NCBI GenBank assembly: GCA_945876435.1
Contig: CAMCOD010000001.1
Location: 19,372-83,371 of the forward strand
DNA: 64,000 bases
Reading direction: 5' to 3'
DNA from: an uncultured Clostridia bacterium
GTDB lineage: Bacteria; Bacillota; Clostridia; Oscillospirales; Ruminococcaceae
The position numbers and the translations under genes were made by a program. This document shows positions 960 through 11,413 of the stretch, in pieces. Each line of letters opens with the position of its first letter. Position 1 is the first letter of the stretch. Below the pieces are notes generated by a model. It did not search any database and had not been told where the DNA came from. It saw nothing but the letters and a program-made list of their open reading frames with translations.

Positions 960-1199
960 TTGATCATGAAACACAAAATGAAAATTTCTCCTCAAACCCC
1001 TCCGGTCACGCAGGATTATCCCCGGCCGGCCGATACCTCCGATATCCCAAAGGATATCCGGGATAATCTGCACATCTCTCCGGAAAAACGGATCTGTCCC
1101 GCTTTTGACTATCTGTCTATCGCTTCCTACCGGGTAGCGTCACCGGATACGATGGGCGTCCGTGTGGTGGACAACATCGTGCATGAGCATATCATGTAG
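960..1199 (+). CDS. small hypothetical protein (77-79 aa), possibly forespore-expressed
   Basis: RBS GAGGTGAT just before TTG960/ATG966; ORF fills an intergenic gap; no recognisable family. Confidence 0.6.
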   Translation: MIMKHKMKISPQTPPVTQDYPRPADTSDIPKDIRDNLHISPEKRICPAFDYLSIASYRVASPDTMGVRVVDNIVHEHIM

Positions 1200-1255
1200 A
1201 TCCCATAAGAAAACAGGCGGGGTTTCGGGCGGTGTTCGTAAAACAGTAAAACAGG

Positions 1256-1439
1256 AAAGGCGTGACCGCGAAAGTCACGCCTTTTCATTATGGGTACAGC
1301 TGCTTTCGCAGAACAAGGGGTGCAGCCCCTTGTTCGGAACGAAGTGACGCAAAACAGCCCGGACATTCAAATGTCCGGGCTGTTCGCCTCGCAGAGCGCA
1401 CTTCTATACAGAGCTTGCCTCTGTATAGAAGTGCGCTCT
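1256..1439. repeat. array of four perfect inverted repeats (11, 10, 14 and 21 bp stems); the last ends in a MOBQ nic-like motif
   Basis: AAAGGCGTGAC/GTCACGCCTTT 1256-1284; GAACAAGGGG/CCCCTTGTTC 1311-1335; AACAGCCCGGACAT/ATGTCCGGGCTGTT 1353-1384; AGAGCGCACTTCTATACAGAG/CTCTGTATAGAAGTGCGCTCT 1393-1439. Confidence 0.85.
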
Positions 1440-1514
1440 TTATCAGTTCAACAAATTGGAAGTTGTCAATGTCTAAGTGTCAATTTTCTGTTTGCAAATT
1501 CGCGAGCGGTTTTG

Positions 1515-2072
1515 TCATGTCGTTTGGTCTTTCTGGCCGCGATCCAGATAGAAATAAATATCTGCATTGCCCTCTTGTTTCGTGCCTTTATACACATTGG
1601 TATTCAGCCCGCCAATGACAAAGCCGCACTTGATATAAAACAGGCACGCCGCAAGATTGTTGTCTTGGCCCTGCGTATATAGTCCGTTATAACCGTGTTC
1701 CACAGCAATTTCTTTTGACTTCTCAATCAACAATTCACCAATATGCTGCCCACGATATTCCTTATTGACCTTCAAATCATAAAGATACATATATTTGTTC
1801 CAGCTATGACAAAGAATGGCAAGTCCGATGCATTTGCCGCCGTCGTAAGCACCGACAAAAATATGGTTCTCGGCAAGTTCGTCATAATTGTAGTTTTCGT
1901 CTGGAAAGCACATTTCTGCGACCGTGTCGAGTTTCTCGGTCGTATAGGCCCACTTACCATCTGCGTAAGTCGGAATCATTCGTCCGAACAGAGCGAACGG
2001 CTCGTTGGGAATGTTAATGTCTGCTTCGTGGGATTTGTCTATTGTTTTGATTATGATTCTTTGATTCAACAT
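1515..2072 (-). CDS. GNAT acetyltransferase, SatA/Sat4 (streptothricin acetyltransferase)-like
   Basis: 185 aa; motifs NIPNEPF, WNKYMYLYDLKVNKEYRGQHIG and QDNNLAACLFY..CGF.IGG resemble SatA/Sat4 as recalled (QDNNLIACKFY..CGF.IG); RBS GAGGTGA. Confidence 0.75.
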   Translation of the reverse strand: MLNQRIIIKTIDKSHEADINIPNEPFALFGRMIPTYADGKWAYTTEKLDTVAEMCFPDENYNYDELAENHIFVGAYDGGKCIGLAILCHSWNKYMYLYDLKVNKEYRGQHIGELLIEKSKEIAVEHGYNGLYTQGQDNNLAACLFYIKCGFVIGGLNTNVYKGTKQEGNADIYFYLDRGQKDQTT

Positions 2073-2110: not shown

Positions 2111-2139
2111 ATCATATCATACGGCTACAATATATGCAA
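2111..2139 (-). promoter_or_regulatory. sigma-A-type promoter of the sat-like gene
   Basis: Minus strand TTGCAT(2139-2134)-17 bp-TATGAT(2116-2111). Confidence 0.6.
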
Positions 2140-2143
2140 GAAT

Positions 2144-2171
2144 AGTCCCGGCAGACATTACTGCCGGGACT
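2144..2171 (-). terminator. intrinsic terminator-like hairpin after dnaG-rpoD-rrf2
   Basis: 11-bp stem AGTCCCGGCAG/CTGCCGGGACT, 6-nt loop. Confidence 0.6.
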
Positions 2172-2231
2172 GAAACTGTTTTATGACCACCGCACCTTCC
2201 CCGCCTGTTTTCTTATCCTATGTTCCACAAC

Positions 2232-2627
2232 TTACATAAATTCCGAAAATTTATGAGATTCCAGCCTTGCCTGCACATCTTTGGAAATATCCCGGAACAC
2301 TCTCTGGAACCGGCAGGGCGCTCCTGTTTTGCAGCCGCACTCATATTCCCCGGACAGACAGCGGGAAAGCTGGTATTCGCCCTCCACGGTGCGGATCACA
2401 TCATATAAAGAGATTTCCTCCAACGGCCGGCCGATCTCATAGCCTCCCTGTGTACCTTTAAAGGATTTCACAATACCGGCGGCAACCAGCTTCCGTAAGA
2501 TTTTCAGGGAGAAACGCAGGGTTACGTCAGACGCTTCGGCGATTGATTTTGCATCCATTCGCTTTCCTGCCTTTGCCAGACAGTACACGATCCGGATCGC
2601 ATAGTCTGTTTCCATTGTAAAGCGCAT
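2232..2627 (-). CDS. Rrf2 family transcriptional regulator (Cys-containing, IscR/NsrR-like)
   Basis: TDYAIRIVYCLA, KILRKLVAAGIVKSFKGTQGGY, C-terminal C..C.C....C cluster. Confidence 0.9.
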   Translation of the reverse strand: MRFTMETDYAIRIVYCLAKAGKRMDAKSIAEASDVTLRFSLKILRKLVAAGIVKSFKGTQGGYEIGRPLEEISLYDVIRTVEGEYQLSRCLSGEYECGCKTGAPCRFQRVFRDISKDVQARLESHKFSEFM

Positions 2628-3752: not shown

Positions 3753-5510
3753 CTATTTCTTCTTTGCGGTTAAGGAATCCACATAATGCTTAAACTCATC
3801 GGGATCCATTTTTGCAATATCCTGCTCCGATTTCGCGTTGTTGTGCTCCTTGAGAATGGCCATGTACTCATCCAATTGGGAGCGTTCCGCTCGTTGAATG
3901 GTTTCGGAAGCCAAAATCGCCGATAAACGATCCATGGCTTCCCCGGACAGCTCTCCGGAAAGGGCCATAGGCTCCACCGAGCGATGGGTCTGGATCCGTT
4001 CACAGAGCAAAACGGCAATCTCCCGGTTTATTTCCGTAACAAAGTCTTCCGGCTTCATATTTTGCAGAAAATACGGAACATAATCCGGATTTTTGATCAA
4101 AATCTCAATGATCCGTTCCTCTGCCACAGCGTATTTCAGATTGCGCCTGCGGTCCAGATCCTTCCGTCCCGCCGCAATATCCCCGATATAAATGCTGGTG
4201 TCATTTTTTTCTTTTTTGGCCTGCACCCGCTTGCGCCCCTGCTGAATGGAGGTGATCTGCGCTGTAATGGCCGCTGGCGACACACCCAATTCCTCAGCGG
4301 TTCTGGTCAAATAAACTTCCCTTTCCAACGGATTGCGGATATCAGCCATAAGACGGGCAAAATCCTTGAGAAAGCCGACCTTTCCGTCCGCGGTTTCCGT
4401 ATCATATTTCTTTCGAAGCTTCGTGATTTCAAACTCCAGCGCGTTGGTGCAGCCCTCCAGCAGAAGCTGAAAACGTTCCGGACCGAATTTTTTTAAATAT
4501 TCGTCCGGGTCCTTCGCGTCCGGGATGGTCAGCACGTTGACCTTGACTCCAACCTCGGAAAAAATATTGATCGCCCGTTTTGTCGCGGCTTGTCCGGCAT
4601 TATCCGAGTCATAAGCAATGATAATGGTATCGGTGTATTGGGCAATGATGCGGGCCTGTTCTTCGGTCAGAGAGGTGCCCAGTGTAGCCACCGCGTTATC
4701 AAAACCCGCCTGATGGATGGCGATCACATCCATATACCCCTCCGCCAGAATCAGGTTTGGCGCCTTGGAGGCTTTGGCAAAGTTAAGCGCGAACAAATTC
4801 TTGCTTTTTTTGAAAACCGGCGTATCCGAGGAGTTCAGGTATTTCGGCCCCCGATCGCCCATGGCCCGTCCGCCGAAAGCCACAACATTCCCTCTCAAAT
4901 CAATGATGGGGAAAATGACTCTGCCGCGAAAGCGGTCGTACAGCCCGCCGTTTTTGCTCCGCGCACAAATTCCCGAAGCGACCATTTCTTCTTCCCGGAA
5001 ACCTTTTCCCTTTAAATGATCCACCAGGCTGTTCCAGTCATCCGGTGCGTAACCCAAGCCAAAGCGCCGGATGATCTTTGGTGTTCGTCCTCGCTCAATG
5101 AGATAACGGTAAGCATCCTTTCCCGGCTCTGAAATCAGACATTGATGATAGAAACGGGCTGTTTCCCGATTGATCTCCAGCGTTCTGGCCTTCAGCCTGG
5201 CTCCGCTGTTGTCCATGGAATCTTCCGGAACAGGAATTCCGGCTTTCTGGGCCAGCAGCTTGACCGCCTCCACATACTCCAGATTCTCAATACGCCGCAG
5301 AAAGGTGATGGTATCTCCTCCTGCGCCGCAGCCAAAGCAGTAAAAAGACTGGGTTTGGGGATAAACAAAAAAAGAGCCTGTCTTCTCCGAATGGAACGGA
5401 CACAGCCCCACCAAATTTTTTCCCTTCCGGGTCAGCTTTACATAAGCCGAAACAACATCTTCAATGTCACAGCTTGCTTTCAGCTCTTGAATAAAGGAAT
5501 CCGGGATCAT
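3753..5510 (-). CDS. dnaG: DNA primase
   Basis: Zn ribbon CPFHSEKT...CFGC, KYLNS, TOPRIM EGYMDVI and AYDSDNAG. Confidence 0.98.
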
Positions 5511-5742
5511 TGTGTCCTCCTTTCTGACCTATCCTGTCATATCAGTGTGCAGTTATCGTCAAATTATGCTTCATCTGTCAAAAAACATGCTCTTTTCGAG
5601 CAATCTGGAAAAATTATCATTCTGTTCGATAGTTTCCCTATAATAATTATACCGAACAAAAGAAAAAACTCCTGCTTATTTGCAGAAGTTTTTTTCTTTT
5701 TTTCGATTGTTGACCTGTTTTTTGCGAAAACAGCCCACAGCC

Positions 5743-6366
5743 TTACAGAGGAAATTCTCCCATGCAGCGTTCCACTTCCTCCGGAACCACGGTCGCCGCC
5801 GTCAGTTCGGTCAGTTCCGCCCGGAAAGCTTCCACATCCCGTTCAATAAACAAAATGCCCATGGTGACCATATCCGTAAATTCCGTATTCTGAAGAACCG
5901 CTGTATATTTCGACAGAATGTTGTTGATTTTCCCGTACTGATTATAATCCATTTTAAGCCGCAGCAGCACCGCCGGGCTCATCACTTTCCGCTGAGCCGC
6001 GTCAACCGCCAGCTTCGCTGCATGGGCATAGGCCCGAACCAAGCCCCCGGCACCCAGCAGAATGCCGCCGAAATAACGTGTCACCACCACGATCACGTCC
6101 GTGATCCCTTCTCGTTCCACAACCTCCAGAATTGGTACGCCGGCAGTCCCCTGCGGCTCGCCATCGTCAGAACAGCGCTTTACCCCGTTCTTGAGAACAT
6201 AAGCAAAGCAGTTATGGCGGGCATCTCTGTGCTTTGCCCGCACTTCGCTTAAAAAGGCCAGGGCCTCTTCCTCCGTGGAAGCCGGCGCAATAGCGCCAAT
6301 AAACTGGGATTTTCGCTCAAAAAAATCGTCTTGAGCTTTTTGAGCAACGGTGACATATTCTTTCAT
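5743..6366 (-). CDS. yigZ: YigZ/IMPACT family protein
   Basis: KSQFIG, HNCFAY, SDDGEPQGTAG.PIL, VVTRYFGGILLGAGGLVRAY. Confidence 0.93.
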   Translation of the reverse strand: MKEYVTVAQKAQDDFFERKSQFIGAIAPASTEEEALAFLSEVRAKHRDARHNCFAYVLKNGVKRCSDDGEPQGTAGVPILEVVEREGITDVIVVVTRYFGGILLGAGGLVRAYAHAAKLAVDAAQRKVMSPAVLLRLKMDYNQYGKINNILSKYTAVLQNTEFTDMVTMGILFIERDVEAFRAELTELTAATVVPEEVERCMGEFPL

Positions 6367-6413
6367 GGCGAAACCTCCTGTCTGGAAAACAAATAAAAAA
6401 CCAAATGAAAAGA

Positions 6414-6440
6414 AAGGCGGTGCAGAAACTGCACCGCCTT
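6414..6440 (-). terminator. intrinsic terminator after rpmE
   Basis: 12-bp stem AAGGCGGTGCAG/CTGCACCGCCTT followed on the minus strand by a T-rich tail. Confidence 0.7.
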
Positions 6441-6463
6441 CAATGGCCGGTTCTATACCGCCA

Positions 6464-6667
6464 TTATTTGTCCATGTTGAAACGCTTGTTGAAGCGATCT
6501 ACACGGCCGCCAGAATCAACGAGCTTCTGTCTGCCAGTAAAGAAAGGATGACACTTTGAACAAATTTCAACGCGCAGGTCCTTTTTGGTAGAACGAGTTT
6601 CAAATTCTGCACCACATGCACATTTTACTACTGTTGGCTCATACTTAGGATGGATACCCTGTTTCAT
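6464..6667 (-). CDS. rpmE: 50S ribosomal protein L31 (Zn-binding, C+ type)
   Basis: [35 protein letters not shown]. Confidence 0.97.
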
Positions 6668-6770
6668 TACGGAGTCACCTCTTTCTGATATACAAAAATA
6701 ACATGGTATATAATATCATAACCTTTTCAAAAAAGCAAGGCAATTTTGAAAAAACGGCAAAATTCCCAGT

Positions 6771-7688
6771 TTATTTGCTGATTCCACCCTTGTTTGGCAG
6801 CCGATCCTCTAATTTCAGTGTAAAACCGTTTCCATGAACCTCATTGACCCGATTAACGATCATAAAAGCATGCGGGTCAATCTCCTTCACCACGTTGGTC
6901 AAATCATGAAGCTGACGGTTGTTGATGACCGACATAACCACCCTCTGCTGCTGCTTCAAATGACCGCTCACCGAATTCAGCAGAGTGGTTCCCCGGTCGA
7001 TCTTGTCCTGGATTGCTTGGCTGATCTCCTCGTATTTTGTACTGATAACCATTACCTGCGTCTGTGTTACACCCAGCATAACTACCTTGTCCAAAACGAT
7101 GGTAGTGGCGATGATAACCACCAGGCTGTAGAACAGGTTCTGGGCATTGGAATATGGAAGTTGTGTGCATACAATAATAAGATCCATGGCGTTCATGCTG
7201 ATTGCCACTGAAATTCCTGTTTTTTTCTGCAAAATAATCGGAGGGATGTCCATACCGCCGGTAGAAGCTCCTACACGGATCACCAGACCTACCCCCAGCC
7301 CAACCAGACCGCCGCCGAAAACAGCCGCAAGCAGAGGATCGCTGTTCAAAGTGGAAATGGCTGGAATAGACTCCAAAATCGCCAAAGCACCCGGATAAAG
7401 GAAGGTGCTCAACAGCGTAGTCGCCGCGAAGCGTTTGCCCAGCACCAAAAAACCAAGAATAAACATGATCACATTTAAAATACCAACACCGACAGACAGC
7501 TTCAGCCCAAACACATGCTCCAGCAGCAAGCCGATACCGGTAGCGCCTCCGCTCATAAAGCCCATTGGCGCAATGAAAAGCATAACGCCCAGCGCCAAAA
7601 TCAGGTTCCCGATAAAAATAATAAACAGAACACCCAGTTCCTTCAGCAGCTTATCCCTGTTTATTTTTAACTTACCCATATTCATCAT
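6771..7688 (-). CDS. YitT family membrane protein (DUF2179)
   Basis: Multi-TM; GGATG, GASTGGMDI, IDPHAF. Start moved to ATG at 7688 (track starts at 7742). Confidence 0.88.
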   Translation of the reverse strand: MMNMGKLKINRDKLLKELGVLFIIFIGNLILALGVMLFIAPMGFMSGGATGIGLLLEHVFGLKLSVGVGILNVIMFILGFLVLGKRFAATTLLSTFLYPGALAILESIPAISTLNSDPLLAAVFGGGLVGLGVGLVIRVGASTGGMDIPPIILQKKTGISVAISMNAMDLIIVCTQLPYSNAQNLFYSLVVIIATTIVLDKVVMLGVTQTQVMVISTKYEEISQAIQDKIDRGTTLLNSVSGHLKQQQRVVMSVINNRQLHDLTNVVKEIDPHAFMIVNRVNEVHGNGFTLKLEDRLPNKGGISK

Positions 7689-7773
7689 CCTATCTTCCCG
7701 CTTCCTGCGGAAAGGCCTTCCTTTCTTCCGAAAATTCCCCAATAATATTCAATCAAGGTCCACAAGACTTTTT

Positions 7774-9300
7774 CTATCTCCTCCAATACTTTCTGTCCAG
7801 AGAGCGGTACTGCAATGCTTCCATCAAATGACGACTCTCGATCTGCAGGCTCCCCTCCAGATCCGCGATGGTGCGGGACACTTTCAGAATTCTGTCGTAG
7901 GCTCTGCCGGAAAGCCCCATCCGGTCAAAAGCTGCCGCCATCCGCTTGGAAGCTTCCTCTGTCAGCGAGCAGAATTCTCTCATCTGCGCCGAGGTCATCC
8001 CGGCATTGCAGGTGGTTTCCGTTCCGCTGAAACGCTGCTCCTGAATGCCTCTTGCCCGACAGATCCGCTCTCGAACCTGAGCGGAGGATTCCTCTTCCGA
8101 TGTGGAAGTCAGGTCGCTGTACTCCAACGGAGCCACCTCCACCTGAATGTCCATGCGATCCAGCAAAGGCCCGGAAACTCTGGCCAAATACTTGTCCACC
8201 GCCTTCTCACTGCAGCGGCAGGCGATTGTGGGATGTCCCAAATATCCGCAAGGGCAGGGATTCATTGCCGCTACAACCATTACATTGCAGGGATAAGTGA
8301 CCCGAGAGCTGGCCCTGGATATGGTTACGGTCCCATCTTCAATGGGCTGGCGGAGAATCTCGATGGCCTGACGGCTGAATTCCGGCAGTTCGTCCAGAAA
8401 CAGGACGCCATTATGAGCCAGAGAGATCTCTCCCGGCATGGGATTGGAGCCTCCGCCTGATAGACCGGCAGGACTTACGGTATGATGAGGCGCCCGGAAC
8501 GGACGCTGTACCTGCAGCGTTCCTTCCTTCTCCAGCAAACCCGCTACCGAGTGGATTTTAGCCGTTTCGATGGTTTCTTTTTCCGTCAGCGGGGGCAGGA
8601 TCGTCGGGATCCGCTTTGCCAGCATGCTTTTTCCAGTACCGGGCGGCCCGATAAGAAGCAGGTTATGACCGCCTGCTGCCGCTACCTCCAGCGCACGCTT
8701 GGCAAGAGCCTGCCCTTTTACATCCCGAAGGTCCACCGGGTAAGTCTGCGCCTGTTCCATCAGCCGTTTGCGCGGCTGAGGCTCCAGTGTTTTTTCACCG
8801 GACAGATGCTGAATCACATCGGTAATATGTTCCGCTCCGTAGACGGTGATTCCGTCCACAACGGCGCCCTCTTCCGCATTGGCTTTGGGCAGAAATATCT
8901 CTTTGATCCCATCTTCCCGTGCCTGCAGAACCATAGGCAGCACGCCGCGCACCGGACGAAGTTCACCGTACAGGGACAATTCCCCCAGGAAAGCTCTTGT
9001 CTCCACAGGCTCCGGCAAGTACCCTCTGCTGCTCATTACTGCCAGCAGGATCGGCATATCGTAAATCGGCCCAGTCTTTTTGACAGCGGCCGGAGCCAAG
9101 TTCAGTACGATCTTGGCCACCGGAAACGGATAGCCGCAAGTGGACATGGCCGCGCGCACTCGGTCTCTGGATTCCTTTACTGCCGCATCCGGCAGCCCGA
9201 CAATCTCAAAACTGGGCATTCCTCTGGACAGGTCGACTTCCACCTGCACCTGATAGGCCTCAATCCCGGTCACACCATAACTTTTGTAGCAGCAATACAA
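7774..9300 (-). CDS. comM: YifB/ComM Mg-chelatase-like AAA+ ATPase
   Basis: IVGLPDAAVKESRDRV, Walker A GPPGTGKS, PFRAPHHT, LAHNGVLFLDELPEF, SGPLLDRMD. Probable TTG start at 9300 after a GGGGGG RBS. Confidence 0.93.
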   Translation of the reverse strand: MYCCYKSYGVTGIEAYQVQVEVDLSRGMPSFEIVGLPDAAVKESRDRVRAAMSTCGYPFPVAKIVLNLAPAAVKKTGPIYDMPILLAVMSSRGYLPEPVETRAFLGELSLYGELRPVRGVLPMVLQAREDGIKEIFLPKANAEEGAVVDGITVYGAEHITDVIQHLSGEKTLEPQPRKRLMEQAQTYPVDLRDVKGQALAKRALEVAAAGGHNLLLIGPPGTGKSMLAKRIPTILPPLTEKETIETAKIHSVAGLLEKEGTLQVQRPFRAPHHTVSPAGLSGGGSNPMPGEISLAHNGVLFLDELPEFSRQAIEILRQPIEDGTVTISRASSRVTYPCNVMVVAAMNPCPCGYLGHPTIACRCSEKAVDKYLARVSGPLLDRMDIQVEVAPLEYSDLTSTSEEESSAQVRERICRARGIQEQRFSGTETTCNAGMTSAQMREFCSLTEEASKRMAAAFDRMGLSGRAYDRILKVSRTIADLEGSLQIESRHLMEALQYRSLDRKYWRR

Positions 9301-9574
9301 CCATATCCCCCCTTCCGCTTTCATCATACGGCTGTTCCCAACAGTATGGCATTGATCGCAGCGCTCTAAGAAATATTATATCTTATCACAGTGTAACATA
9401 TTTCCTTTTTTGCTTCAATTCCTTTTTCGATTGCCGTCCGGAAAAAATAAGGTCAATTCTTTAGAAAAAATTACAAAAAAGTGCTTTATTGCACTGTGTT
9501 TCATGTTATAATAGCAATAATAGGGAGTGTTTTGCCCTGTGAAAACAGACTTTATCATAATGGAGGGTTATACT

Positions 9575-11272
9575 ATGAGCTACATGGATAAATATCATAT
9601 CTGGAGATCCGTTAAAATGGAAGACCCTGCTCTGTCTGCTGAACTGGAAGCGATCCAAAACGATAAAAAGGAAATTATGGAGCGCTTTTACAAAGATCTG
9701 GAGTTCGGGACCGCCGGTCTCCGCGGTATTTTGGGTGTGGGTACCAACCGCATGAACATTTATACCGTCCGTTTGGCGACTCAGGCAATGTCGGACTACC
9801 TGAACAACTCGGATGAAGCCAAAACCGTTGCCATCGGTTACGACAGCCGCATCAACAGCCAGCTTTTTGCCAAAGAAACTGCCTGTGTGTTCGCCGCCAA
9901 CGGCATCCAGGTCCACCTCTACGCCGAGCTGATGCCGGTTCCCTGCGTATCCTATGCTGTACGCCAGTTAAACTGTGGTGCCGGTATTATGATCACAGCC
10001 AGCCATAACCCTGCCAAGTACAATGGTTACAAGGCCTACGGCCCGGATGGCTGCCAGCTTAATCCGGAAGCCGCCGCGAAAGTGCTGGAATACGCGGGCA
10101 AAACCGACATCTTTACTGGTGTAAAACATATTTCCTTTGAAGAAGGTCTTGCCAACGGCAGCATTCAGTACATTCCGGAAAGCCTTATCCAGGCTTTCCT
10201 GGACAAGGTCTACAGCCTCCGTGTAAATAAGGAAGCTTCCGCTGACCTTCACGTTGTTTACACCCCTCTCAACGGTGCCGGAAATCGTTGCGTCCGTACC
10301 ATTCTGGATCGGATGAATGTCCGCACCACCGTTGTCCCCGAACAGGAGAAGCCTGACGGCAACTTCCCAACCTGTACCTACCCCAATCCGGAAGAAAAGG
10401 CGACTTTGGAACTGGGCATTGAACTTTGCAAAAAGGAAGGCGCCGATCTGGTGCTGGCCACTGACCCGGACTGCGACCGCGTAGGCTGCGCAGTCAATCA
10501 CCATGGCCAGTTCATTCTGCCTACCGGCAACGAAGTGGGCGTTCTTATGCTGGATTACATCTGCCGCTGCCGCAAGGAACAGGGCACCCTGCCTCAAAAT
10601 CCGATAGCGGTAAAATCTATCGTGTCCACCCCTTTGGCTGATGAAGTAGCAAAATACTACGGCGTTCAGGTGATCAACGTGCTTACCGGCTTTAAATATA
10701 TTGGTGAGCAGGTTTCTCTGCTTGCGGACAAGGGCGAACAGGATCGTTTCCTGCTGGGCTTTGAAGAAAGCTATGGCTATATGACCGGCGACCATGTTCG
10801 GGACAAGGACGGCGTCAACGGTGCCATGATGATCTGCGAAATGGCCCAGTACTATAAGCAGAAAAACATGACCCTGATTGACGCGCTGGAGGAGATTTTC
10901 GCCCGTCACGGTATTTACAACGCCCAGGTCAAAGGCTACAGCTTCGAAGGCGCGGACGGTATGGAGAAGATGAAGACCATTATGGCACAGCTGCGTCAGA
11001 ATCCGCTGCGGGAGCTTGCCGGCTATCCGGTCATCGGCTATGCGGATTATCAGTCCGGCAAACGCAGGGCAGAGGGTGTGGAGTCCGATATCGGCCTGCC
11101 TCTGGCCAATATTCTGGAGTATAATCTGGAACAAAATCTTAAGGTCATTATCCGCCCATCCGGTACCGAACCAAAAATCAAGGTTTATCTCACAATCGTC
11201 ACCAACGACCGTCAGCAGATTCCAGTGATCGCGCAGAATCTTTTTGCCGCTGTGGAAGAGCATTTGAAATAG
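9575..11272 (+). CDS. pgm: phosphoglucomutase/phosphomannomutase
   Basis: FGTAGLRG, catalytic TASHNP, DPDCDR metal loop, FEESYG, RPSGTEPKIK; ATG 9575 follows GGAGGG. Confidence 0.95.
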   Translation: MSYMDKYHIWRSVKMEDPALSAELEAIQNDKKEIMERFYKDLEFGTAGLRGILGVGTNRMNIYTVRLATQAMSDYLNNSDEAKTVAIGYDSRINSQLFAKETACVFAANGIQVHLYAELMPVPCVSYAVRQLNCGAGIMITASHNPAKYNGYKAYGPDGCQLNPEAAAKVLEYAGKTDIFTGVKHISFEEGLANGSIQYIPESLIQAFLDKVYSLRVNKEASADLHVVYTPLNGAGNRCVRTILDRMNVRTTVVPEQEKPDGNFPTCTYPNPEEKATLELGIELCKKEGADLVLATDPDCDRVGCAVNHHGQFILPTGNEVGVLMLDYICRCRKEQGTLPQNPIAVKSIVSTPLADEVAKYYGVQVINVLTGFKYIGEQVSLLADKGEQDRFLLGFEESYGYMTGDHVRDKDGVNGAMMICEMAQYYKQKNMTLIDALEEIFARHGIYNAQVKGYSFEGADGMEKMKTIMAQLRQNPLRELAGYPVIGYADYQSGKRRAEGVESDIGLPLANILEYNLEQNLKVIIRPSGTEPKIKVYLTIVTNDRQQIPVIAQNLFAAVEEHLK

Positions 11273-11385
11273 AGAAAAATTTCTGAAAGCAAGAATTTAA
11301 GCCAAAGGAACCGGTTTTTGCCGGTTCCTTTGATTTTTTCCCGCTTTTTCTGAAAATTTCTCCGAAGTGGCTTGGACGTTCCGTC

Positions 11386-11413
11386 TTGAAACTGCAAATT
11401 TTTATGTTATAAT
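11386..11413 (+). promoter_or_regulatory. sigma-A promoter with extended -10 for the corA leader
   Basis: TTGAAA(11386-91)-16 bp-TATAAT(11408-13), with TG at 11405-06. Confidence 0.65.

Follow-up and report, generated by a model that had tools for sequence, protein, structure and literature searches.

The region studied here is a 64,000-nt stretch of contig CAMCOD010000001.1 (GCA_945876435.1) from an uncultured Clostridia bacterium, hereafter called the window, in which an array of hairpins occupies positions 1256–1439. Positions 1223–2198 of the window are probably a 976-bp non-autonomous "mini-IME", of the same kind as cis-mobilizable elements (CIMEs) and iOriT islands, which derives from MOBQ2 integrative and mobilizable elements (IMEs) with genes for DUF3847, MobA/MobL and a DUF4368-type recombinase. 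It keeps only inverted ends of ~25 bp, a terminator hairpin at each end, an origin of transfer (oriT) and one cargo gene with its own promoter. A host terminator carries the element in its loop, IMEs bearing a relaxase and a recombinase have homologous ends and oriTs, and the host has no cognate relaxase. In the preliminary description, the array was considered a relic or trans-mobilizable oriT left beside a sat-like gene. The oriT part of this proposal is supported, but the oriT and the gene turn out to be parts of one 976-bp non-autonomous element. The host genome (G000, 1.93 Mb) was compared with 40 related genomes (G0xx), and the extracted loci are designated L0xx. The coordinates of the features are given in Table 1.

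Insertion of the Element into a Host Terminator

The gene order around the array is MBOAT (minus strand), a 79-aa open reading frame (ORF) at 960–1199 (plus), the array, a GNAT acetyltransferase gene (minus) and an Rrf2 gene at 2232–2627 (minus), followed by rpoD and dnaG. In the congeners G011, G015 and G002, only an intact bidirectional terminator (AAAAACAGGCGGC..GCCGCCTGTTTTT; for example, AAAAACAGGCGGCAGCTGCCGCCTGTTTTT), with no insert, lies between the small ORF and the Rrf2 gene. In the window, the two arms of this terminator are now 976 bp apart, which defines the insert as 1223–2198. TT is found at both of its junctions. The insert is also present in a metagenome contig of this species. 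The 43-bp inverted repeat flanking it was also considered as a long target duplication, and this was rejected, because the repeat resolves into 18 bp of split host terminator and 25 bp of element end.

The left end has a homologue, GGGTGCTCRTAAGAAAGT, at the end of the G023 and G008 serine-recombinase IMEs, and the consensus of 24 complete mini-elements of the family described below is WTT(A/C)GGCGGGTGTYCGTAAAACAGT. The right-end consensus is ACTGTTTTAYG..CACCCGCC(A)TT, and its IME counterparts read ACTTTCTTAYGACCCCCGRCCATT. The G023 IME (~8.9 kb) and the G008 IME (~12.6 kb) thus have ends, ..GGGTGCTCRTAAGAAAGT and ACTTTCTTAYGACCCCCGRCCATT.., homologous to those of the insert, and each lies between terminator arms, e.g., AAAAAAGCCCCG / CGGGGCTTTTTT.

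The only sizeable ORF within 1223–2198 is the GNAT gene, so the insert differs from an autonomous IME, which has its own integrase or recombinase and usually a relaxase as well. It has the features of a CIME or iOriT: attachment (att) ends homologous to those of the G023 and G008 IMEs, a retained oriT block, loss of the transfer genes and empty sites in congeners. An IS200/IS605-type element and an integron attC site were considered on account of the subterminal hairpins and the single-gene cargo; both were dropped, since the 25-bp inverted ends are homologous to serine-recombinase IME ends and neither TnpA nor IntI is involved.

Conservation of the oriT Block

The block 1292–1441, which includes hairpins 2–4 and the nick motif, is 75–92% identical to 30 other distinct sequences; 18 of these adjoin Mob genes, and a contig end truncates two others. 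A blastn search of the 40 related genomes, in which no motif was used as a seed, found window positions 1314–1441 at 83–88% identity in other genera and provided a five-sequence alignment of the block. In G023, G008 and G005, the block is located 140–160 bp upstream of an operon encoding DUF3847 (PF12958, E = 2.5e-28), MobA/MobL (PF03389, E = 1e-89, whole domain) and a large serine recombinase with Resolvase, Recombinase, Zn_ribbon and DUF4368 domains. The IME cargo, for example an AlwI-type restriction-modification pair, is on the opposite side of the block. The check proposed in the preliminary description thus had a positive outcome, homologues of 1292–1441 being found directly upstream of MobA/MobL operons in other Clostridia. 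The similarity between the window and the IMEs stops just past GAAGTGCGCYCTT, and in the five-way alignment it ends right after GAAGTGCGC(C/T)CTT.

For a wider survey, one genome per species was scanned for TGTATAGAAGTGCGCYCTT, and at least 120 loci were obtained among the matches listed. In 30 of the 120 listed loci, minus-strand DUF3847/MobA-L genes are present on the left side of the core, beginning at about −265 to −285. In 43 others, an element end is found no more than 750 bp to the left, which is too short for a relaxase; 25 have a flank too short to classify, and 22 are variants. The relaxase operon of the relaxase-linked loci is always on the same side and strand relative to the core. 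The window copy itself does not adjoin a MobA/MobL (PF03389) gene. The listed loci belong to gut Clostridia (Oscillospiraceae, Lachnospiraceae, Blautia, Ruminococcaceae and Acutalibacteraceae), together with one Coriobacteriaceae record. MOBQ2 IMEs were defined by PF03389 together with PF12958 and are abundant in Faecalibacterium (Guedon et al. 2025, PMC12084326). In our opinion, it is very likely that the block is a homologue of the MOBQ2-IME oriT lying inside a non-autonomous insert.

The secondary structure of the block is conserved as well. In an alignment of 31 distinct sequences with the full window-type block (the window and 30 others), the proposed helices are paired in 90.7% of cells. 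Compensatory changes were found at 13 pairs versus 6.9 in shuffles (none of 500 shuffles reached 13), and the number of compensatory cells was 52 versus 5–20 in controls with slid partners. The covariation supports hairpins 0, 2, 3 and 4: seven of ten pairs covary in hairpin 3, and the distal stem of hairpin 4 alternates between GAG/CTC, GGG/CCC and TGG/CCA across the alignment. Part of the invariance of the 3′ arm of hairpin 4 comes from the search pattern, which prescribed its sequence; the seeding does not account for the covariation seen in the distal stem of this hairpin or in hairpins 0, 2 and 3. The oriT hairpins are under structural selection.

The unpaired linker at 1341–1350, between hairpins 2 and 3, is almost invariant across the 31 oriTs. 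It contains GAAGTGACGC, a near-copy of the nick core GAAGTGCGC plus one base, which may serve the relaxase as a second binding site or as a pseudo-nick site.

Structure of the Hairpin Array

All four inverted repeats noted in the preliminary description are present and 100% complementary, except that the third stem is 15 bp long rather than 14. In a census of the whole 64-kb window (perfect stem of at least 10 bp, loop of 2–8), 21 perfect hairpins were found. Four lie within these 184 bp, a fifth (hairpin 5) is at 2144–2171, and the remaining ones are mostly A-tract/T-tract terminators. The single-stranded DNA (ssDNA) fold of 1250–1445 has an energy of −68.2 kcal/mol versus −27.3 ± 3.5 for shuffles (z = −11.7).

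A G+C-rich stem followed by a T-run, as expected of a terminator, is found in hairpins 1 and 5. Hairpins 2 and 4 have no T-run, and that of hairpin 3 (TTTTG) is limited to the minus strand. The block conserved with the IMEs does not include hairpin 1. Every mini-element has a hairpin at the hairpin-1 position, with compensatory changes (e.g., in L099), and the IMEs have one at the equivalent position, after the recombinase stop codon. Thus, of the four hairpins that had been proposed as a possible oriT, hairpins 2–4 belong to the conserved block; hairpin 1 does not, being a terminator carried by the element.

A genome search with the array found only the array itself in the 1.93-Mb host genome. 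A REP-like (repetitive extragenic palindromic) dispersed repeat was therefore ruled out. In Rfam at E ≤ 1, the array gave only sub-threshold microRNA-precursor matches, which are generic for perfect hairpins, and a weak Thr-leader match, and a known RNA family was rejected on this ground. A gathering-threshold Rfam scan of ten mini-element loci found no family inside the elements.

Nick-Region Core

The 12-mer GAAGTGCGCTCT at 1428–1439 is identical to TAAGTGCGCCCT at 10 of 12 positions, as had been stated previously; being part of a palindrome, it is also present on the other strand at 1393–1404. The inverted repeat said to precede the motif does exist (hairpin 4), but the motif lies inside the 3′ arm of this proximal repeat. 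In RSF1010/R1162, by comparison, the nick motif is presumably located ~8 nt downstream of the inverted repeat, unlike in the window.

Compared with (T)AAGTGCGCCCT, the window core gives 10/12, which taken alone is no better than chance, and most homologues give 11/12. The relatives in the five-way alignment read GAAGTGCGCCCT, which is 11/12 to the MOBQ motif. The window core fits the invariant positions of the MOBQ nick consensus NWACCNNTAAGTGCGCCCTYNN (as quoted in PMC3832669) and of the consensus NcgtNtaAgtGCGCcCTta of Gram-positive plasmids of the pIP501/pGO1 type (as quoted in PMC10333310); the family core TGTATAGAAGTGCGCCCTT also keeps every invariant position of the latter.

In relaxase-linked oriTs (L019, 8490–8530, and others such as L131, L034 and L101), a second small hairpin, CCCTTTGttccCAAAGGG, follows and overlaps the core, which places the predicted nick position between two alternative hairpins. 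This second hairpin covaries with the C/T variant of the core, reading CTCTTAGC..GCTAAGAG in L101.

Orphan Status in the Host Genome

According to the preliminary description, no relaxase is encoded in the window, and this proved correct: the only PF03389 signal of the genome lies outside it, at G000:C1:118208-118378, and is a 58-residue fragment. The relaxase profile PF03432 and DUF3847 (PF12958) gave no match in the host genome.

The fragment belongs to a decayed second element, ~97 kb downstream on the same contig (L032 = G000:C1:114000-126963, about 4018–11405) and after a cdd gene. This element begins with a 17-mer end, GGTGTTCGTAAAACAGT, identical to that of the window element. Its 195-aa ORF keeps only positions 118–176 of the MobA_MobL profile, and of the cognate serine recombinase there remains a stump of 149 aa with the Resolvase domain only (a 135-aa piece is 81% identical to the G023 recombinase). 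Its probable cargo is CbiK with an ABC transporter of the iron/cobalamin type. Elsewhere in the genome, at G000:C27:20988-26190, a 786-aa ORF has a weak AAA_10 (VirB4-like) match, and a second ATPase-like ORF (574 aa) is nearby; these could be the remains of a conjugative element.

Among 41 related genomes, ten have the core, at 12 sites, only three of which adjoin DUF3847, and six of the ten have no DUF3847 gene at all.

Family of Mini-Elements and Assortment of Modules

At least 43 one-gene mini-elements of 0.4–1.9 kb were found, with diverse cargo in constant orientation; the left-end pattern used for these counts was made to leave out the hairpin-3 word CGCAAAACAGC. Mini-elements outnumber autonomous elements in the sample. 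The 24 complete ones (0.4–1.9 kb) share the layout of the window element, which is, from left to right, the left end, the terminator hairpin, a variable middle, the inverted repeat with the nick core, a spacer, the cargo gene, its leader with a promoter-like site, a hairpin and the right end. Of the 24, 22 lie between the two arms of a perfect stem (7 bp or more, with a maximum of 21 bp) and have TT at both junctions; an A-tract is mostly present on the left-hand side and a T-tract on the right-hand side.

The left and right modules flanking the core assort independently. The post-nick spacer of the window, designated R0, was found in 38 of 116 loci and is nearly always joined to left modules of the mini type, namely, L1 (25 loci) and L2 (8 loci); the IME-type module L0 accounts for only two loci, the window included. 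Judging from this, the window element resembles a recombinant whose parts were joined at the core. Such a structure fits joining mediated by a relaxase, which is only suggestive because the sample was seeded with the core.

In addition, seven loci (L084, L085, L093, L115, L135, L142 and L152) have a second gene between the left end and the core, encoding a 126–151-aa DUF559 (PF04480) endonuclease-like protein and flanked by the repeated palindromic modules GGCTCCCTTGTGTAAAGGGAGC and TGTCAGCGAAGCTGACTGAGGG. In the congener G010, at least six contig ends (C5, C9, C33, C108, C114 and C198; L023–L025) stop inside the right-end module (hairpin 5 with ACTGTTTTAYG), which indicates that the family is multi-copy there and breaks the assembly. 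No DUF3847 gene was found in the G010 genome.

Proposed Mobilization and Alternative Explanations

We suggest the following pathway for mobilization of the element. By analogy with known systems, a cognate MobA/MobL relaxase, probably together with the DUF3847 protein, would bind hairpin 4 and the conserved linker and nick the plus strand in the core. MOBQ relaxases cut within GTGCG/CCCT, and by analogy the nick here would be within GTGCG/CYCT. Hairpins 2 and 3 and the linker may serve as accessory sites. Transfer would proceed 5′ to 3′ from the nick, so that the cargo side would enter the recipient first; in full IMEs, the mob genes would enter last. Excision and integration at the TT crossover would require a serine recombinase in trans, and transfer a relaxase and a conjugative pore in trans. 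The joined ends would form a palindrome of ~50 bp centred on TT, resembling a serine-recombinase attP, with the predicted circle junction ..CGCACCTT/TCGGGCGG.. Hairpins 1 and 5 would substitute for the terminator destroyed by the insertion, and hairpin 3, which is followed by TTTTG on the minus strand, is probably a terminator of the cargo transcript as well. In this genome, the element would therefore be stranded unless such an IME and a helper enter the cell. If it were not excised, a relaxase acting in trans could only start an Hfr (high frequency of recombination)-like transfer of the adjacent chromosome.

On balance, we are inclined to regard the block as a still working oriT that can be mobilized in trans. 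Several points weigh against this and should be considered. Matches to the MOBQ motif at 10/12 occur twice in the window, in the two arms of hairpin 4, versus 4.4 ± 2.2 expected, and 92 of 100 shuffles were as good. The resemblance put forward in the preliminary description is therefore not above chance by itself; as a match of this quality is expected ~4.4 times per window, the motif served as a lead and was dropped as evidence, and the case for an oriT rests on homology, context and covariation. The exact 19-mer core (Y at position 16) occurs at the at least 120 genome loci of the survey, but this invariance is partly by construction, the 19-mer having been the seed. The covariation fits hairpins of ssDNA and of RNA equally, and the minus-strand cargo transcript has the array as its 3′ end. 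A blastn search of PLSDB with 1200–2230 gave no plasmid match, and a plasmid origin of the segment was rejected. As for the core, the window has the T variant (C>T), which is found in 14 of the 120 listed loci, only one of them relaxase-adjacent (L101). A TTCT insertion, found otherwise only in L099, makes hairpin 4 of the window a perfect 21-bp palindrome, and the hairpin (CCCTTxx..xxAAGGG) present after the core in the IMEs is missing. With these three changes, the window copy may be a poor substrate. Nicking, excision and transfer of the element are predictions from sequence.

The same differences could mean that the array is dead debris, a relic oriT that is no longer nicked, excised or transferred and whose hairpins only terminate the small ORF and the GNAT gene. 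The absence of a cognate relaxase and recombinase from the genome, the minority core variant, the missing downstream hairpin, the terminator-like hairpin 1, the minus-strand T-run of hairpin 3 and the clearly decayed second element of the same genome all agree with this. However, none of the four oriT helices is disrupted, and both inverted ends and the core are likewise complete. Fourteen independent loci share the T variant, and the relaxase-linked one among them (L101) has a compensating change in the partner of the downstream hairpin. Moreover, other taxa (L042, L099 and L033) combine this left module with different cargo, which indicates that the backbone was still moving or recombining after the loss of the relaxase, and mini-elements outnumber autonomous ones. 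We therefore consider dead debris unlikely.

It is also conceivable that the core with its inverted repeat is mainly a recombination site for the exchange of cassettes, at which a relaxase joins two nick cores in a manner resembling integron attC, conjugation being secondary. Relaxases such as MobA of R1162 and TrwC of R388 recombine oriT copies, and the independent assortment of modules, including the partners of R0 listed above, would be explained. One module of left terminal inverted repeat, hairpin 1 and oriT is joined to three different right modules, and the cargo is a single gene in one orientation. Nevertheless, the sharing of a core by unrelated flanks is partly an ascertainment effect of selection by the 19-mer, ordinary recombination in the spacer 1441–1465 or the leader 2076–2140 could suffice, and no junction intermediates were seen. 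As the primary function, this is quite improbable; it adds to the reading as a transfer origin and is compatible with it.

Finally, the position between convergent genes, the terminator score of hairpin 1 and the very low folding energy would suit ordinary chromosomal features (redundant terminators of convergent genes, REP-like palindromes or a structured small RNA), but we give this almost no credence, because the array occurs only once in its own genome, is missing from the corresponding intergenic site of congeners, is conserved at 75–92% in unrelated contexts across families, often beside MobA/MobL, and has only sub-threshold microRNA-hairpin matches in Rfam.

Cargo Gene and Coordinates of the Features

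The cargo GNAT scored 105 bits against NCBIfam sat4, for which the cut-off is 380, and is thus only distantly Sat4-like; its G+C content is below that of the flanks. Among 25 mini-elements examined, the window included, 21 have an ORF of at least 50 aa, and in all 21 it is on the strand opposite to the core. Six of these 21 cargo genes encode GNATs. Other mini-element cargo includes an ANT(2'')-family protein, a HAD hydrolase, an alpha/beta hydrolase, MazG, RidA, a PNPOx-like protein and helix-turn-helix (HTH) proteins. The segment 2076–2186, upstream of the cargo gene, is 82–92% identical to the equivalent part of the G002 and G010 elements, which carry other cargo.

An inner imperfect inverted repeat, AAAYTGGAA.., brackets the cargo gene at 1449–1464 and 2086–2101. 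Its copies lie in segments conserved across mini-elements with different cargo and may therefore mark exchange points of the cargo. The 79-aa ORF at 960–1199 has no Pfam match; its DNA and its position by Rrf2-rpoD-dnaG are conserved in the congeners G011, G015, G002 and G003.

Table 1. Coordinates of the insert, its hairpins and the adjoining host terminator in the window.
Feature	Positions	Strand	Description
Host terminator, left arm	1205–1222		ATAAGAAAACAGGCGGGG; perfectly complementary to 2199–2216
Left terminal inverted repeat	1223–1247	+	TTTCGGGCGGTGTTCGTAAAACAGT; inner arm of attL
Hairpin 1	1256–1266/1274–1284	both	11 bp, loop 7, 100% complementary; element-borne bidirectional terminator (1256–1284), minus-strand call in terminator scan, A-tract before and TTTTC after (plus strand)
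oriT block	1292–1441	+	H0 (1299–1312), hairpin 2 (1311–1335), linker, hairpin 3 (1353–1384), hairpin 4 (1393–1439)
Hairpin 2	1311–1320/1326–1335		10 bp, loop 5, 100% complementary
Hairpin 3	1353–1367/1370–1384		15 bp, loop 2, 100% complementary
Hairpin 4	1393–1413/1419–1439		21 bp, loop 5, 100% complementary; inverted repeat overlapping the nick region
Conserved nick-region core	1422–1440	+	TGTATAGAAGTGCGCTCTT; contains the MOBQ-like 12-mer at 1428–1439
Post-nick spacer (R0 module)	1441–1465	+	TATCAGTTCAACAAATTGGAAGTTG; common to mini-elements
Cargo gene	1515–2072	-	185-aa GNAT acetyltransferase; Pfam PF00583, E = 5e-17
Promoter-like site and conserved 5′ leader of cargo	2111–2139	-	TTGCAT-17-TATGAT, read from sequence
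Hairpin 5	2144–2171		AGTCCCGGCAG..CTGCCGGGACT; by right end, conserved in G002:C78 and at least six contig-end copies in G010
Right terminal inverted repeat	2175–2198	-	ACTGTTTTATGACCACCGCACCTT; inner arm of attR, imperfect inverted copy of 1223–1247
Host terminator, right arm	2199–2216		CCCCGCCTGTTTTCTTAT; complementary to 1205–1222, followed by the Rrf2 stop codon at 2232

Significance and Comparison with Known Systems

Integrated elements with an oriT only have recently been recognised as common hitchhikers and are known so far from a few clinical species, as large islands with an integrase. The form found here in gut Clostridia is far smaller (<1 kb, one gene) and invisible to tools based on signature proteins. 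Through such elements, genes for small enzymes, among them relatives of antibiotic-modifying enzymes, would pass from one species to another. The cost to the host would be low, since the insertions fall in terminator loops and replacement terminators come with them. A chromosomal orphan oriT could also let an incoming relaxase drive the Hfr-like transfer of neighbouring genes, here Rrf2-rpoD-dnaG. The conserved block is a candidate oriT for the MOBQ2 IMEs, a group abundant in Faecalibacterium and relatives. In the literature searched, we found no experimental mapping or description of a MOBQ2-IME oriT, no description of ~1-kb, one-gene elements with neither integrase nor relaxase and none of terminator-loop targeting. 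A bolder view, which we regard as doubtful, is that the ~1-kb elements form a cassette system in which a promoter-bearing gene lies between serine-recombinase att arms and the MOBQ core is both the transfer origin and the joint at which a relaxase swaps modules. They would then be third-order hitchhikers (mini-elements on IMEs on conjugative elements), spreading GNATs, ANT(2'')-like proteins and hydrolases into terminator loops across gut Clostridia.

Among known systems, the oriT of MOBQ2 IMEs (PMC12084326) is the closest: the window block is 75–92% homologous to the intergenic block ~270 bp upstream of DUF3847 and MobA/MobL, and some of these IMEs have a DUF4368 serine recombinase and are inserted in a terminator loop. 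Unlike them, the window copy has no DUF3847, relaxase or recombinase gene. The oriTs of RSF1010/R1162 (MOBQ) and of pIP501/pGO1 share with the block the core AAGTGCGC(C/T)CT, an inverted repeat on its 5′ side and, in the homologues, an adjoining gene of the MobA/MobL family. The block differs from the RSF1010 type in its match to the motif (10/12 in the window, 11/12 in most relatives), in the position of the core inside the 3′ repeat arm, in three further conserved hairpins of the window family and, in the IMEs, in a second hairpin overlapping CYCTT.

CIMEs and other mobile genetic elements (MGEs) without a relaxase have been described (Guedon 2017, PMC5704250; PMC12084326), as have orphan oriTs on plasmids and iOriT islands, which are integrative and have an oriT and no relaxase (PMC10123127; Ares-Arroyo et al. 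2026, bioRxiv 10.64898/2026.01.13.699239). As in these, the window element is integrated, has kept its att ends and oriT, has lost the transfer genes and would be moved by others. Unlike these, it is <1 kb long, has one gene and no integrase and belongs to a multi-member family with interchangeable cargo that resembles miniature inverted-repeat transposable elements (MITEs). It is also not in tandem with an integrative and conjugative element (ICE) or an IME, as the cis-mobilization of CIMEs requires.

The parental IMEs resemble Tn4451/Tn4453 and Tn5397 (with the recombinases TnpX and TndX) in their DUF4368 recombinase, imperfect inverted ends, lack of a long target duplication and many targets. 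They differ from the Tn4451 type in the MOBQ2 relaxase, the apparent TT junction dinucleotide and the terminator-loop targets; Tn4451 itself has a MOBV relaxase (TnpZ) with an RS_A site, and its crossover is GA. By analogy only, the mini-elements can be compared with MITEs and integron cassettes, which are likewise short non-autonomous units with ends recognised by a recombinase, moved in trans and carrying a single varied gene in a fixed orientation. The window element, however, has no DDE transposase, IntI or attC and combines ends resembling serine-recombinase att arms with a conjugation origin.

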